NCBI GenBank assembly: GCA_943788985.1
Contig: CALSSJ010000010.1
Coordinates: 96,001-160,000 of the forward strand
DNA from: an uncultured Lentisphaerales bacterium
Lineage (GTDB): Bacteria > Verrucomicrobiota > Lentisphaeria > JABSQK01 > UBA12247
Direction of reading: 5' to 3'
Length of the DNA stretch: 64,000 bases
Position numbers: made by a program. Below are positions 27,901-33,900 of this stretch, one piece after another (the first letter of the stretch is position 1; each line of letters opens with the position of its first letter).

Positions 27901-30900
27901 CCGAACTTGCCGAGCGTGCCCTCCTCGGCACAACCGGCCCACCGCTATCCATCCGCCAGATGGCCCGTGACATTCGCCGGGCCATCTTCGTCACCACGAT
28001 CCTGGTTGCGCTCTCCGCATTCATCTTCATCGGCTGCTGGGTGCTCACCTTTGTCCCGATCGTCCAGGTCGCCGCCATCGTCTTTCTGCCGTTTGCCCAG
28101 ATGTTCCTGGCTGGCGCTGGCTTTGTCGATCCCGTGCTCGAGCGCCGCAAGCTGTCCGTCCGCGAAACCTTTCACTACATCTGGGCGCACCGCTGGCGAA
28201 TGGTCGGCAACGGCTGTGGCTACACCTTGCTGCTGCTATTTCCGATCGTCGGCTGGTTCCTGGCCCCTGGCTACGCCGTCGTTGCCGCCACAGTCGGCGC
28301 CGTCCGCGACGAACAGCCCGGTGAAACCTTGCCCGAGCTACAGTGAGTGCCGCCCCGCGCATCTGGCTCTTTGGTGCCACCAGCATGGTTGGCTGGAGCG
28401 TGTACCAAGCCGACCCCACCGCGATTCGCCCCTTCTGCAACCGTCACGTAAAACATCCGAAATGCGCAGACTGGACGCGCATTCAGATCGACAGCCTGCC
28501 TCACCTCGAAGCCCTCTTTGCCACCGGCAAGCCAGACATCCTGATCCACTGCGGCGGGGTTTGCGGAGTTCGCAAATGCGAGGAAAGCATGGACTGGGCC
28601 TGGCGGGTCAATGTGCTCAGCATGGCCGCGATTCTCGTCGCCTTGCCCACCAGCGTACGCCTGGTCTACGTCTCGTCCGATCATGTCTTCGGCCACGCCG
28701 AATCCCCGTGTCTGGAGCAAACCACCCCCACGCCCATCAGCCACTATGGTCGCACCCGCGTGGCGGCCGAAGAGCTGCTGCGTGAAGCCCGGCCCGACGG
28801 CCTGATTCTCCGCGTACCGCTCGGTGTCGGCCCCTCAATCGACGGACGCACTGGGCACCTGGACTGGTTGCAATACCGACACGGCCGCGGCTTGCCGATC
28901 ACCGTGATCAAGGACGAGGTCCGCGCCGTAGTCAGCGCCCCCGCGCTCGGCCGCCGCATTCTCGACTACGCGCATTCTTCCATCACCGGTACCCGCCACA
29001 TAACCGGCCCCACCATGGATCGCGTCGAGCTGGCGCAGAAACTCTGCGAGGCAATTCCGCTTTCGGCAGAGATCAAAGTCGAGAGCCGCCACGCCCAGTG
29101 CTACCCGCACCTGGGCACCGTCCGACTGGAGACGTCCTTCACAGACGCGCTGGCCGAGCCCCTCCCGCTACCAGAGTTGCTTACTGGGAGCGCCGGTTTT
29201 AACCGGCCCCACCACGCCCGATGACGCCATGACTGGGCTGACTTGGTGACAATGCGACTGCTAGCCGGGCGTCATCGGGTCATGGCGTCGTCGGGAGTCA
29301 TGGCGTCACCAAGTCACCAAGTCCTATTCCATCACGCCCCAGGCGTGAGTGCTGGCGGGTGCAGCAGGACTTGGTGACTCGATGACTTGGTGACGCCCGA
29401 TGACGCCATGACTGGGCTGACTTGGTGACAATGCGACTGCTAGCCGGGCGTCATCGGGTCATGGCGTCGTCGGGAGTCATGGCGTCACCAAGTCACCAAG
29501 TCCTATTCCATCACGCCCCAGGCGTGAGTGCTGGCATAAGGGCAGGACTTGGTGACTCGTGACTTGGTGACGCCCGATGACGCCATGACTGGGCTGACTT
29601 GGTGACAATGCGACTGCTAGCCGGGCGTCATCGGGTCATGGCGTCGTCGGGAGTCATGGCGTCAACAAGTCACCAAGTCCTATTCCATCACGCCCCAGGC
29701 GTGAGTGCTGGCGGGTGCAGCAGGACTTGGTGACTCGATGACTTGGTGACGCCCGATGACGCCATGACTGGGCTGACTTGGTGACAATGCGACTGCTAGC
29801 CGGGCGTCATCGGGTCATGGCGTCGTCGGGAGTCATGGCGTCAACAAGTCACCAAGTCCTATTCCATCACGCCCCAGGCGTGAGTGCTGGCATAAGGGCA
29901 GGACTTGAGTGACTTGGTGACGCCCGATGACGCCATGACTGGGCTGACTTGGTGACAATGCGACTGCTAGCCGGGCGTCATTGGGTCATTGCGTCGTCGG
30001 GAGTCATGGCGTCAACAAGTCACCAAGTCCTATTCCATCACGCCCCAGGCGTGAGTGCTGGCATAAGGGCAGGACTTGGTGACTCGGTGATTGCTGCAGG
30101 CTCGTCCTATTCCACCACGCGAGCCGTGGTATTGTCCAGCAGTCTGCATGCAAATATATCAGCGAGTCATTTATCATGAGCGGAATTTACCACCAAAGCG
30201 GTGGATATCGTAAGCTGCACTCCTTTAGCTTCGCCACGATCATCCATCTCGGGTGCATTGACTTCTGCAAGCGCTTCATTCACTGGAAGGAAGACTCGCT
30301 GGGTAAGGCAGTGGGCCAGATGGTCGGCGCGTCGCGGTCCGGAAAGCAGAATATCATTGAAGGCTCGGAACGAGCCCGAACCTCTGCTGAGACGGAGATC
30401 AAGCTCACCGATGTGGCAAAGGGAAGTCTCAGTGAGCTGCAGGGAGACTTTGAGGACTATCTGGTCTCGCGCGGCGTAGTGCCTTGGAGCGTTCAGGACC
30501 CAAGTCACACAGCCATCATGGCGCTCCGGCTAGATACATTCGAATACACCGACGACTTGCTGCACGATTACTGGACGTTTCTGCTGTTGCAGAAGGCAAA
30601 GTTCTCGCAGTGGCTGGACAACGAGGATCCTATTGTGGTGGCCAACGCGCTTATCGTACTGATCCAGCGTGCGACGGGCTTGCTTGGGCGCCAACTCAAG
30701 GAGCTAGAGCGCGCCTTCCTTGAGCGCGGCGGCGTTCGCGAGCAGATGACCAAGGCCCGGCAAGAAGCGCGGGCCGAACCAGAGTCCCCGGCCTGCCCAC
30801 AATGCGAGGCGCCAATGCGCAAGCGTAATAGTGCGCGTGGGGACTTTTGGGGATGTAGCACGTATCCCGCGTGCAAAGGCACTCGGCAGGTGTGAGAGCG

Positions 30901-33900
30901 CGCGTGACAATGTGTCCTGGCCGGGAGTCACCAAGTCCTGTCCCATCACGCCCCAGGCGTGAGTGCTCGCGGGTCCAGCAGGACTCGGTGACTCGATGAC
31001 TTGGTGACGCCCGATGACGCCCGATGACGTCATGACTGGGCTGACTTGGTGTCAATGCGACTGCGATGCCGTGGCGTCAATCGGGTCATCTGCTAGCCGG
31101 GCGTCATCGGGTCATTGCGTCGTCGGGAGTCATGGCGTCAGCAAGTCACCGAGTCCTGTTCCATCACGCCCCAGGCGTGAGTGCTCGCGGGTCCAGCAGG
31201 ACTCGGTGACTCGATGACTTGGTGACGCCCGACGACATCATGACTGAGATGACGCCGTGGTGGTGTGACTTCCTGTCGGCCGTCATCATGTCATCGCGTC
31301 GTCGGGCGTCATGGCGTCAGCAAGTCACCAAGTCCTGTCCCATCACGCCCCAGGCGTGAGTTCTCGCGGGTGCAGCAGGACTCGGTGACTCGATGACTTG
31401 GTGACGCCCGGCGACATCATGACTCGGCTGACGCAGTGACAATGTGTCCTGGCTGGGAGTCATCAGGTCGTCGGGAGTCACGGCGTCACCAAGTCCTGTT
31501 CCATCACGCCCCAGGCGTGAGTGCTCGCGGGTGGATAGTGTTATAATGACACGGCGCCAACGCACCGGCCGCGAGTCGTAGGATTGTCCGTGTTCTCTCC
31601 ACCAACCGAGCCAAAGTCTGATATGCAACGCACTACCTACGGTTACATCGCCACCTTTCTTATGGACTTCACCGTTGGCGGGGCCATTCTCGGCATCGGT
31701 TTTCATCTGCGGGCACTTGGCTACGGTCCCTTGCAGATTGGCTTCACCTTATCTGCCGGCATGCTTTGCTATTTCATCGCCTGTACGATCCTGGCTCGGT
31801 ACTATCCGGAGCGTGACCCCTTTAAGGCGATCGTTGGCGGGCTCATTCTCAACTGCATCAGCTTGCCGCTCCTATTTGTCGTCAATACCATCCCGGGATT
31901 CCTCTTCTTCACAGCGTTGAATGCGACCGGGATGGCGATGTATTTCGCCAGTATGCAGGCATGGATGACGGTCAATTTCTCGCGTGACGCCATGAACACC
32001 ACGATTGGCAACTATGGGTTGGCATGGACGAGTGGCTTGATGAGCGGCCCGGCATGCGCCGCGGTAGTTGGCAGGTTTTGGACGGCGCAAGGGTGGGGCC
32101 CCGAATATCACGCGCCCTACGCGCTCTGCATCGGTGCCAGTACGATCGCGGCGCTTCTGGCGTTCCAGCGATTTCGACACGACCCACCGACGACCGCGCA
32201 CAAAGAGAGAACCAAATTCTGGAGGAGTTTCGACACCGACGACTACACCCGGTTCATGATCATAGCATTGCTCATGAACTTGGTCGGCAACATCAGTGCG
32301 GGAATCGTGCGCAACCTGGTCGCTATCCTTGAGGTCACGACCGCCACCGGCGGATTGGTGAAAATCAGTCAAGAGCAGGCCGGTTATCTGAGTGCGGCAT
32401 TGTCGGGCGCAATTTTCGTATCGATTCTGCTCTTTCGTTTCTACCGAAAGTGGGCCATGTCTATGCGCTACGTCCTCGGCCTGCAGGCCCTGATCCTGCC
32501 TGCGGCTTTGATCTTCCTGTGCACCCATGACTATTGGTTGTTCGTGTTGGCAGCTGTCTGCGTAGGCTTCATGAACGGCTTTGCGTTCTACAGCGCGGCC
32601 TCGTACGCGCTTCAGGCAGGTGAGAAAGGGCAGCGCAACATCACGATCAATGAGGTCGTGGTTGGGCTCGGAGGCTTTACTGGCGCCATGGGGGGCGGCC
32701 TCATCGCCCAGCATTTTGGCAACGCGATCGCGTTCGCATCGCCATTATTGGTGGTGATCGCAGTGGTGCCGTGGCAGTTTCGGCTGTATCGCAAAAGGCC
32801 AGACGGCCCCTGGGAGTAGTTCGTTGGCTTGGCGTGCGTCATAGCCGAGGCGTACCAAGCGTCATCCGCTCGCCTATGAGTGAGGAGGCAGGCTGCATTG
32901 GGGCAGCGCGGCACGGGATGCGGGGCCTCACATTGGCCCCATCTGAGGTGATGTCTATGCCCGTCCTGCAAGGTGGCGCGACGCTGATCTGCCCCCGGAC
33001 GTCTGTTCTCTCTAGCCTTACCGTACAGTCCCGTGAGGCTCGCAATCTAGACGGATTCTCGTAATGTTCACGCCCGCGAGACAATCATAACCGCTTACTG
33101 GACACGGCCTTGCAACAACCCCGCAGACTCGAGAATGTCGACTACGATGCCTTCGGTGAGGAGGTTTTTGCACTCAGGGACGAAATCCACGCCAAGCTTG
33201 GCAAGGAAGACCTGGCGCATCTGTGGCGGATGATCTGGCTTAATCGGATGTTCACCTTCATTGGCTACGCGACAGCGTGGATTCCAAACCCGATCAGCAT
33301 TTACTGTCTGAGCCAAGGAGTTTTCGGGCGCTGGTTGATCACCCACCATGTCAGCCACGGTGGCTACGACGCGGTACCGAACGTACCCGAGCGGTTCAAG
33401 AGTAAGGTCTTCGGCCGGGGGCATCGTCGCTGGCGGGATTGGTTCGATTGGATCATCCCGGAAGCTTGGCATCACGAGCATAATATCCTGCACCATTGCC
33501 ACACCAGCGAGGTGAAGGATCCGGATCTTGTCGAAGATTTATCCGAGTTTTTACGAAGTTCCGGCCTCCCGAAACCGCTCAAGTACGTGATCATTTTTCT
33601 GGCTGGGATCACCTGGAAGTTCAGCTACTACGCACCAAACACCTTACGGACCATGGATCACAACGGGGTGGAGCCGACCACGTCATTGTGGCGCGCAGTC
33701 TGGTGCAATGGGCTGGATCTGCGAGTTTCTCGGGTACGCCGCCTCTGGCTCTCCTGCTATTTCCCGTACGCCACGGTGACCTTTATTCTGATCCCGTTGG
33801 CCTTCCTTCCCTTTGGCAAGTGGGTCGTCCTGTCAGTCCTGATTAATCGCGTACTGGCCGAGTTCCTGACTAACTTTCACTCGTTCTTGGTCATCGCCCC

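Follow-up and report, generated by a model that had tools for sequence, protein, structure and literature searches.

A Four-Helix-Bundle Gene and Its Phased GAC-Word Repeats Resemble a Selfish Cassette Found in Many Phyla

In the window analysed here, a stretch of 64,000 nucleotides from an uncultured Lentisphaerales bacterium (genome G000), a four-helix-bundle gene was found embedded in repeats made of short phased words with a GAC core. Comparison with other genomes revealed that the association of gene and repeats is specific for GAC, that the words covary with the protein clade, and that gene and repeats have spread horizontally, occur together in genomes and are present at some orthologous sites but absent from others. 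This package of gene and repeats, present across many phyla, looks like a selfish cassette; neither such a cassette nor the pairing itself was found described in the literature searched. We give a probability of about one half to a selfish cassette of the 23S rRNA intervening sequence (IVS) type, the oligomeric protein of which reads its own word arrays, and we infer both this binding and the mobility.

The cassette would consist of the small four-helix-bundle gene and flanking blocks of a short word, in which about four copies of the GAC-core word at a fixed period of 7, 8 or 9 nt are followed by the inverted orientation. Head-to-tail assembly, as in the relative S23p, probably gives the protein the form of a ring or a short filament, and this oligomer would read the words that recur at even spacing in the flanks of its gene, which would serve regulation, maintenance or spread of the cassette. 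Gene-less copies would arise both by recombination between flanking direct copies, like solo LTRs, and by copying in trans, like REPINs, and tandem arrays by unequal exchange. We also infer how the oligomer would bind the words, i.e., in double-stranded or single-stranded form, and how the cassette would move. Points that speak against this view are loci and tree rows lacking a hairpin, a gene remnant at C45 with none, an unrelated AAA_14 gene bracketed by these repeats, and the failure to recognise a nuclease, recombinase or transposase domain or any target-site duplication.

Organization of the Locus

The following features were distinguished in the window:

28343..29224, + strand, upstream host gene, RmlD/epimerase-like (ORF; Pfam RmlD_sub_bind, 6.4e-21)
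29214..30086, no strand, tandem array upstream of the gene, 179-bp unit × 4.9 (TRF, unit listing, folds)
30070..30090, no strand, beginning of another unit, broken off by the gene leader after the first left-arm words (sequence compared to unit)
30091..30175, + strand, leader of 85 nt without kinship to the repeat (sequence)
30176..30895, + strand, four-helix-bundle gene, 239 aa (ORF, HMMs, AF2 model)
30904..31097, no strand, rest of the interrupted unit, from the end of its left arm through loop and right arm, then an irregular unit (sequence, blastn, fold)
31098..31534, no strand, tandem units downstream of the gene, 179 bp × ~2.5 (TRF, blastn, folds)
31584..32819, + strand, downstream host gene, MFS transporter (ORF; Pfam MFS_1, 6.7e-19)

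The sequence places the TGA stop codon of the RmlD-like gene inside the first TGAC word of the upstream array. TRF described this array either as 179 bp × 4.9 (94%) or as 356 bp × 2.5 (96%), the longer super-period resulting from two alternating unit variants, and placed the downstream repeat at 31098–31533. Each unit contained approximately seven phased (T/G)GAC words, a loop, approximately seven GTC(A/C) words and a small CACGCC..GGCGTG hairpin, and the downstream units were 77–84% identical to the upstream ones (blastn). The survey's finding had described the gene as bracketed by hairpins; arrays were indeed found on both sides, but in this locus the gene interrupts the left arm of one tandem unit, which resumes 8 nt past the stop codon.

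DNA folds of seven repeat units gave z-scores of −4.87 and −3.38 (upstream array), −3.87 and −2.97 (downstream units), −1.25 (31020–31160), −6.71 and −5.06, compared to −0.30, +0.36, and −0.31 for three coding controls. A scan of 28900–31800, including the 85-nt leader, detected no sigma-70-like promoter and no terminator, and no rRNA match was present in the same region, the genes flanking the cassette being protein-coding (RmlD-like and MFS). Neither the window nor eight further loci contained an Rfam 15 match at gathering score, the only resemblances being sub-threshold miRNA-precursor look-alikes. A CRISPR array was ruled out, as whole 179-bp units follow each other head to tail at 94–100% identity without unique spacers.

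The Encoded Protein

HMM searches reproduced the domain calls made earlier. The protein matched NCBIfam TIGR04258 at residues 154–200 (5.4e-18; 64.6 bits, cut-off 40) and Pfam Zn_ribbon_Top1 (PF01396) at residues 207–238 (1.9e-10; 40.8 bits, cut-off 32), where the translation contains four Cys (CxxC...CxxxxxC) and the AF2 model three strands. The matches to 23S_rRNA_IVP (PF05635; 7.6e-4, 20.1, cut-off 33.8) and TIGR02436 (1.8e-4, 21.7, cut-off 24) were below cut-off. Judged from these profiles, the protein is a divergent relative of the 23S rRNA IVS protein (S23p) family that falls below both HMM cut-offs. The AF2 model (pLDDT 91.4) predicted bundle helices at residues 15–34, 44–66, 71–98, and 152–184 with an insertion at 109–147, followed by a TIGR04258 suffix helix (187–199) and a C4 Zn ribbon (207–238). 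The best Foldseek match was 2gsc, at a weak E-value of 0.044 and a TM(target) of 0.65, with 2rld at rank 11 and no match at E ≤ 1e-3. No nuclease, recombinase or transposase domain was recognised with Pfam, NCBIfam, PADLOC, and PHROGs, and an HUH/Y1 transposase was absent from Pfam and NCBIfam matches up to E = 1; PADLOC and a PDB search by sequence yielded nothing useful, and PHROGs the Zn ribbon only.

Self-assembly was predicted for four copies of residues 8–200, which scored 0.51, compared to 0.00 for the best control, with at least 91% contact agreement between runs and a partner pLDDT of at least 80. Of proteins solved as same-chain pairs, 20 of 30 attained the mark used, as did 1 of 23 proteins with a single-chain structure, and the pass may reflect the model's memory, a like complex (the S23p homopentamer) having been solved. 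The predicted interface is head-to-tail, with the invariant residues R54/K57/Q58 facing the E87/D91 region. Across 54 family sequences from many phyla, 28 columns were invariant; since the predicted subunit interface is where the invariant residues lie, contact with nucleic acid need not be their role.

Association of Gene and Repeats Across Phyla

The sample consisted of 78 loci with a gene model from many phyla (80 were fetched; L016 and L051, which had no start, were dropped). A strict hairpin, i.e., phased GAC words followed by phased GTC words, was present at most 300 nt from the gene in 43 of them (38 upstream, 15 downstream) and absent in 35, while the same loci contained seven such hairpins in ~494 kb of far flanks and two inside genes. 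The previously proposed recurrence of the partnership across phyla is thereby supported. GAC ranked first of all 64 triplets in the phased-hairpin test of the 78 loci, and the runners-up AAG (20), AGG (14), GGA (13), and TGA (9) were all parts of longer words; the mirrored order, GTC and then GAC, was seen in two loci. Single phased runs, most often of four words (102 of 188 runs), reached a density of 4.04 per kb close to the gene versus 0.21 per kb far away.

A fold scan independent of the words (DNA-MFE z ≤ −3; 78 of the 80 loci folded, 76 scored) was positive upstream of the gene in 10/19 close and 15/57 distant loci, against a background of 3.8% of 2497 far blocks. In 38 of 48 cases, 12–31 nt separated the end of the upstream hairpin from the start codon. 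By crude ORF calls, the neighbours were on the same strand as the gene in 42/67 cases upstream and 50/75 downstream, which is ordinary.

Words or Base Pairs

When the word units of the right arm were permuted, the folds remained as stable as before (39 hairpins, mean dE −0.4 kcal/mol, Wilcoxon p = 0.82); the stems are therefore a consequence of placing one word in two blocks of opposite orientation. The spacers were exactly mirrored between the arms in 9 of 140 cases. G·U pairs showed no strand bias (209 on the sense versus 219 on the antisense strand), and the sense fold was more stable than the antisense fold in 34 of 73 cases. Because permuted arms fold equally well and G·U pairs lack a strand bias, words rather than base pairs seem to be kept. 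The hairpin may not be the unit under selection, and to this extent the survey's overall claim needs revision, whereas its partnership, paralogue variants, gene-less copies, arrays and occurrence across phyla stand. Mimicry of SD/anti-SD pairing by the words AAGGAC/GTCCTT was dropped as an idea, as it fits the period-9 clade only.

These data bear on an RNA-level insulator, an explanation that we regard as unlikely. The inverted word blocks would form transcript stems that are cut by RNase III, separating the cassette mRNA from that of the host operon and leaving protective stem-loops behind, and the job of the protein would be unrelated to the words. This would agree with the length of the stems (18–68 predicted pairs per hairpin region), with an upstream stem ending just ahead of the ribosome-binding site, with cassettes that sit within operons without breaking them, e.g., between atp b/delta and alpha, and with the IVSs in which the family is encoded, which RNase III excises at a terminal stem of 28 bp (passages of PMC4990558). 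However, the lack of strand asymmetry in both measures argues against it, unmirrored spacers are odd for a structure selected for pairing, and RNase III needs neither a conserved GAC core nor a clade-specific period. Moreover, gene-less copies in the genome occupy all intergenic configurations, including those between convergent genes (crude ORF calls).

Covariation With Protein Clade and Distribution in Genomes

On a quick tree of 78 rows (76 loci and two paralogues of G000), period 9 (GGAC/AGAC) was found throughout the clade without Zn ribbon, TGAC at period 8 formed one clade (SH-aLRT 99, 14 rows), and CGAC at period 7 a basal grade inside the Zn-ribbon clade. The word/period labels required 21 changes, compared to a mean of 40.6 when shuffled, and a number as low was reached in 0 of 200 shuffles; 20 of the 78 rows were labelled 'none' even under a looser word rule. 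The protein tree mixes phyla at short distances, and members of the short clade are flanked by GGAC/9 in the phyla Acidobacteriota, Chloroflexota, Planctomycetota and Pseudomonadota as well as in the Victivallales genome L040. Word and period track the protein clade, not the host; the covariation could be plain co-inheritance of the gene with its flanks.

The hairpins might instead be a host-specific REP-like family serving as landing pads, into which the gene inserts or beside which it sits by chance. The interrupted unit of a pre-existing array in the window fits this, as does an unrelated AAA_14 gene (C41:4715-6058) that, as reported before, is bracketed by the same hairpin type. Since the words covary with the protein clade, with GGAC/9 occurring across several phyla, the landing-pad view is largely refuted, and we consider it very improbable; three paralogues in one genome, each with its own words, and the near confinement of TGAC runs to gene-bearing genomes also contradict it.

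Of 151 genomes of the class, 86 contained a homologue of the gene, and single genomes yielded up to 13 matches; the earlier count was 207 in 351. At least eight matches to TGACN4 ×3 were found in 15/86 gene-bearing genomes versus 1/65 gene-less ones (a microsatellite), and at least eight to CGACN3 ×4 in seven genomes with and one without the gene. Outside gene-bearing genomes, runs of TGAC words are thus almost absent.

Among 31 genomes, the downstream MFS gene of the window was found only in G000, the sole member of its family there, and filled and empty sites were compared in the Thiocystis operon instead. The ATP-synthase operons of L042, L048, and L083 contained hairpin, gene and hairpin in 920–950 nt in all, between b/delta and alpha and leaving the operon unbroken; the orthologous sites of L084 and L085 were empty, the stop codon of b/delta there sharing bases with the ATG of alpha.

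This comparison also weighs on the possibility of a cellular DNA-binding regulator or nucleoid protein, not mobile, for which the arrays would be operators, both autoregulatory and of a regulon. An array at a fixed distance ahead of the start codon, strong conservation of the family and predicted oligomerisation are what such a regulator would lead one to expect. We nevertheless hold it to be improbable, given orthologous operons both filled and empty, a tree mixing phyla at short distances, and several paralogues, frameshifted copies and remnants per genome. Arrays are also located downstream of the gene and in tandem up to seven units, and gene-less copies are frequently found at 3′ ends of genes.

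Paralogues, Remnants and Gene-Less Copies

Tblastn detected a paralogue at C38:34575-35291 (77%; words TTGACTC/CTGACTC) and another at C29 (words GGAC/GTCC), which is frameshifted, as its two HSPs fall in different frames. The words of both differ from those of the window copy, bearing out that each gene copy has its own hairpin variant. A gene remnant at C45 had no flanking words, and a Zn-ribbon remnant at C31 a TGAC hairpin.

Gene-less copies and tandem arrays, claimed earlier, were recovered by blastn of the unit and a word scan of the genome; they number about 17–20, with arrays of up to seven units, and the gene-less copies often lie at 3′ ends of genes (crude ORF calls). The scan yielded 34 merged GAC→GTC loci with at least three words per arm (25 with at least four) versus 12 (9) of mirrored order. 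These counts depart from the former 57 and 15, as detector and merging differ. Four of the 34 loci, each spanned by an open frame of at least 780 nt, are probably due to chance. In 11 solo copies, similarity started near CAGGACT and stopped after the small CACGCC..GGCGTG hairpin, and no target-site duplication was recognised at these copies or at the filled ATP-synthase sites. A consensus fold of 19 of the 20 C10-type unit copies by RNAalifold was poor and uninformative (20 pairs, two with double changes); the words permit shifts in register.

Comparison With Known Systems

ORF-bearing 23S rRNA IVSs are described for Coxiella burnetii and Leptospira in passages of PMC4990558, where their ORF product S23p is given as a solved homopentamer. 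The cassette resembles them in its small gene, which probably belongs to their four-helix-bundle superfamily (2gsc being the top fold match), in complementary blocks on both sides of the gene, in a sporadic distribution with horizontal transfer, and in being inserted such that the host transcription unit stays usable. In contrast to IVSs, it lies outside rRNA, between RmlD-like and MFS genes, its arms are phased short-word arrays where IVSs have one unique stem of 28 bp, a hairpin can form on each side by itself, the protein has a TIGR04258 suffix and a Zn ribbon, and there are many gene-less copies and tandem arrays.

REP/REPIN elements are palindromic repeats that flank a RAYT gene encoding an HUH/Y1 transposase. 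As in these, a single-copy-type gene was found flanked by its own palindromic repeats, with paralogue-specific repeat variants and dozens of gene-less intergenic copies; unlike RAYT, the cassette protein contains no HUH/Y1 domain or known catalytic motif, and REPs are single short palindromes rather than phased word arrays. More tentatively than the IVS-type reading, we propose a transposase-free counterpart of REP/RAYT, in which a ring protein with one reading site per subunit would read the spaced 3-nt cores and drive or protect the copying of arrays and cassette.

TRAP and HutP are RNA-binding rings that read triplets at regular spacing. The cassette protein may be analogous as an oligomer with one site per subunit for a 3-nt core at a fixed period, but the folds are unrelated, its binding is a prediction, and its words flank the gene on each side as two inverted blocks. 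Diversity-generating retroelements have an accessory protein, Avd, which is homologous, forms a pentameric four-helix bundle and acts together with nucleic acid, as described in PMC10053308; in contrast to Avd systems, neither a reverse transcriptase nor a pair of template/variable repeats was found among the ORFs adjoining the gene.

If the ring-protein reading is true, the S23p/IVS/Avd-like superfamily would consist of sequence-reading oligomers, each subfamily with its own word and period. A rule of one phased word per subfamily would bring together the intervening sequences of rRNA, the Avd-like proteins and one class of intergenic repeats. Members of the S23p/PF05635/TIGR02436 superfamily are very common, and we know of no function assigned to them; such a rule would offer a direct and cheap handle on this function. 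The arrays may be mistaken for CRISPR-like or REP-like repeats, and they break assemblies, many homologues being located on contigs of about 1 kb.

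Gene and Repeat Arrays in the Window

The four-helix-bundle gene was found between blocks of phased GAC words followed by inverted GTC words, an arrangement referred to as the cassette. The features are listed by position in the window.

29214-30086, no strand assigned: upstream tandem array, 179-bp unit x 4.9 (tandem-repeat search)
30070-30090, no strand assigned: first words of the split unit (sequence reading)
30176-30895, + strand: four-helix-bundle gene, 239-aa ORF (ORF call)
31098-31533, no strand assigned: downstream tandem units, about 2.5 more (tandem-repeat search)
43148-44224: ribosomal protein S2 gene with a C-terminal Ala/Lys/Pro-rich tail

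The 179-bp unit consists of about seven (T/G)GAC words, a loop and about seven GTC(A/C) words, plus one more small hairpin. Reading of the sequence showed that the left arm of one array unit is split by the gene and an 85-nt leader, and that the rest of this unit restarts 8 nt past the stop codon of the gene. At 29214-29224, the first TGAC word of the array supplies the TGA stop of the upstream RmlD-like gene. TGAC at period 8 gives every frame on both strands a stop. Folded as single-stranded DNA, seven repeat units showed z-values of -1.25 to -6.71, compared to -0.31 to +0.36 for three coding controls.

In profile searches the 239-aa protein was over the cut-off for Zn_ribbon_Top1 (1.9e-10) and TIGR04258 (5.4e-18); its matches to PF05635 and TIGR02436, the 23S rRNA intervening-sequence (IVS) protein family S23p, were under theirs. 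An AlphaFold model built from a 54-sequence alignment (pLDDT 91.4) predicted a four-helix bundle plus an insertion, a suffix helix and a three-stranded ribbon, with the S23p-family structures 2gsc and 2rld as top, weak fold matches (E 0.044). We read the whole, with a probability of about 0.5, as a selfish cassette of the IVS type, encoding an oligomeric protein that recognizes the regularly spaced words in its own flanks; that the protein binds them, in which form of nucleic acid, and how the cassette would move are points that we infer.

Association of Gene and Words in Relatives

The protein had 1060 database relatives at E <= 0.001, and the best 120 of these were 66-99% identical, many of them on contigs of about 1 kb. 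Among 80 loci fetched from species genomes, 78 of which gave a gene model, a strict GAC-then-GTC hairpin was found at most 300 nt from the gene in 43 (38 upstream, 15 downstream), compared to seven such hairpins in far flanks and two inside genes. The mirrored order scored 2, and GAC ranked first of all 64 triplets, the runners-up being pieces of longer words. Single phased runs, the majority of four words, occurred at 4.04 per kb near the gene versus 0.21 per kb far off (19x). A fold scan blind to the words agrees with this association: z <= -3 was reached upstream in 10 of 19 close loci and in 15 of 57 distant ones, compared to 3.8% of background blocks. The upstream block stops 12-31 nt ahead of the start codon in 38 of 48 cases. 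A gene with word blocks so placed might also be a resident regulator, a reading that fits less well than a selfish cassette and that we hold to be improbable.

Two single loci were also observed. Downstream of a Prevotella homologue, GTCCGAC/GTCTGAC-type words form a long run (L062:4540-4800), with no obvious inverted partner block in the 260 nt downstream or upstream of the gene. Judging from sequence motifs, another cassette (L063:3730-4810) is presumably preceded by the end of a type I hsdS gene and followed by the beginning of hsdR.

Within the class, the gene was present in 86 of 151 genomes. At least eight hits of three TGAC words at period 8 were found in 15 of the 86 gene-bearing genomes and in 1 of the 65 gene-less ones, where they are a microsatellite and the reversed control is high too. 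For four CGAC words at period 7 the same count was reached by seven gene-bearing genomes and one gene-less genome, which is 85% complete and whose hits resemble a heptamer satellite. Host repeats serving as landing pads for the gene fit less well than a selfish cassette, and we regard them as very improbable. The reversed control CAGCN3 x4 gave 35-271 hits in six genomes (G041, G057, G063, G147, G119, and G059) from which CGACN3 x4 is absent; these hits may represent another phased-word repeat family.

Words, Protein Clades, and Stems

In a short clade (about 186-200 aa, without the Zn ribbon) the period is always 9 nt, with (C/A)A(A/G)GGAC words; in the Zn-ribbon clade the word is either TGAC, repeated every 8 nt, or GCGAC, repeated every 7 nt. 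When 78 proteins were placed on a quickly built maximum-likelihood tree, TGAC/8 formed a single clade (support 99) and CGAC/7 a basal grade, with phyla interleaved at short distances. The labels of word and period required 21 changes on this tree; shuffled labels required 40.6 on average, and none of 200 shuffles gave so low a count. This shows clustering rather than recognition, because kin have labels in common.

Stem formation is for the most part a side effect of having one word in two inverted blocks, because G·U pairs were balanced between the antisense and sense folds (219 versus 209 in 73 hairpins, some overlapping), exact mirroring of the spacers between words was rare (9 of 140 cases versus 64 of 3005 between unrelated loci), and permuting the order of word units in the right arm did not weaken the fold (mean change -0.4 kcal/mol, p = 0.82, 39 hairpins). 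The word and its spacing thus seem to be the features that selection preserves. The main rival to a word-reading protein is that the stems act at the RNA level as in RNase III processing of rRNA IVS, and we consider it rather unlikely.

Copies and Insertion Sites

A tblastn search of the genome under study showed a 77% paralogue on contig C38, a frameshifted 45% paralogue on C29, a gene remnant on C45 and a Zn-ribbon remnant on C31. The C38 paralogue is flanked by its own unit of about 200 bp, which has TTGACTC words and also occurs there as a four-unit array, and the C29 paralogue by GGAC/GTCC words; the C31 remnant retains a TGAC hairpin, and the flanks of the C45 remnant are without word repeats. 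A scan that asked for three or more words in each arm at a spacing of 7-10 nt, and that allowed loops of up to 150 nt, gave 34 merged GAC-then-GTC loci versus 12 in mirrored order; four of the 34, in long open frames, are probably due to chance. Under the selfish reading, the cassette would give rise to gene-less copies and arrays as side products.

Hairpins of the window's type also bracket an AAA_14/DUF4143-type gene (C41:4715-6058; region C41:4280-6340). Both copies there have an extra left flank in common, CTGAG(T/C)GAAAGGCTCGG, which is also present at C7:73721 and C32:29892. Outside the window, a canonical TIGR02436 gene (C15:83238-84255, locus L091) scores 86 bits and contains one in-frame TAA. 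It is flanked on either side by a direct copy of a hairpin of about 105 nt made up of CCAA/TTGG words, another word for another subfamily.

The ATP-synthase operon of Thiocystis violacea DSM 208 (L042), whose homologue is a short-clade member, holds a cassette of 920-950 nt between b/delta and alpha, as do the operons of two relatives (L048, L083); a hairpin precedes the gene, and one or two more follow it. In L084 and L085, from two further relatives, the stop codon of b/delta and the start codon of alpha overlap. At the 67-79% identity of this comparison, an exact junction or duplication was unreadable. The b/delta gene of the three occupied loci terminates in or just ahead of the first words.

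Predicted Oligomer and Known Systems

Four copies of residues 8-200 were predicted to self-assemble with a score of 0.51 versus 0.00 for the best control. Of proteins with solved structures, 20 of 30 that are pairs of one chain reached the mark, as did 1 of 23 that are single chains. Agreement between runs was at least 91% of contacts, with pLDDT of at least 80. The predicted interface is head-to-tail, helix 3 against helices 1-2 and the insertion, and the invariant R54, K57, and Q58 face the E87/D91 region. As S23p, a solved relative, is given as a homopentamer in PMC4990558, this result may come from the model's memory.

The nearest described systems are ORF-bearing 23S rRNA intervening sequences, from which the cassette differs by location, word arrays and gene-less offspring, and REP/RAYT, which has a transposase whereas the cassette has none. 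No description of this gene-word-repeat pairing was found in the literature searched. A figure legend (PMC10910872, Fig. 6B) names '23S rRNA IVP' as one of the genes whose link to CRISPR adaptation modules is new; speculatively, word arrays beside such genes might be called as CRISPR arrays.

Elsewhere in the window, a 15-18-nt tandem repeat (TRF, 43959-44180) encodes the S2 tail, which is an ordinary low-complexity extension.
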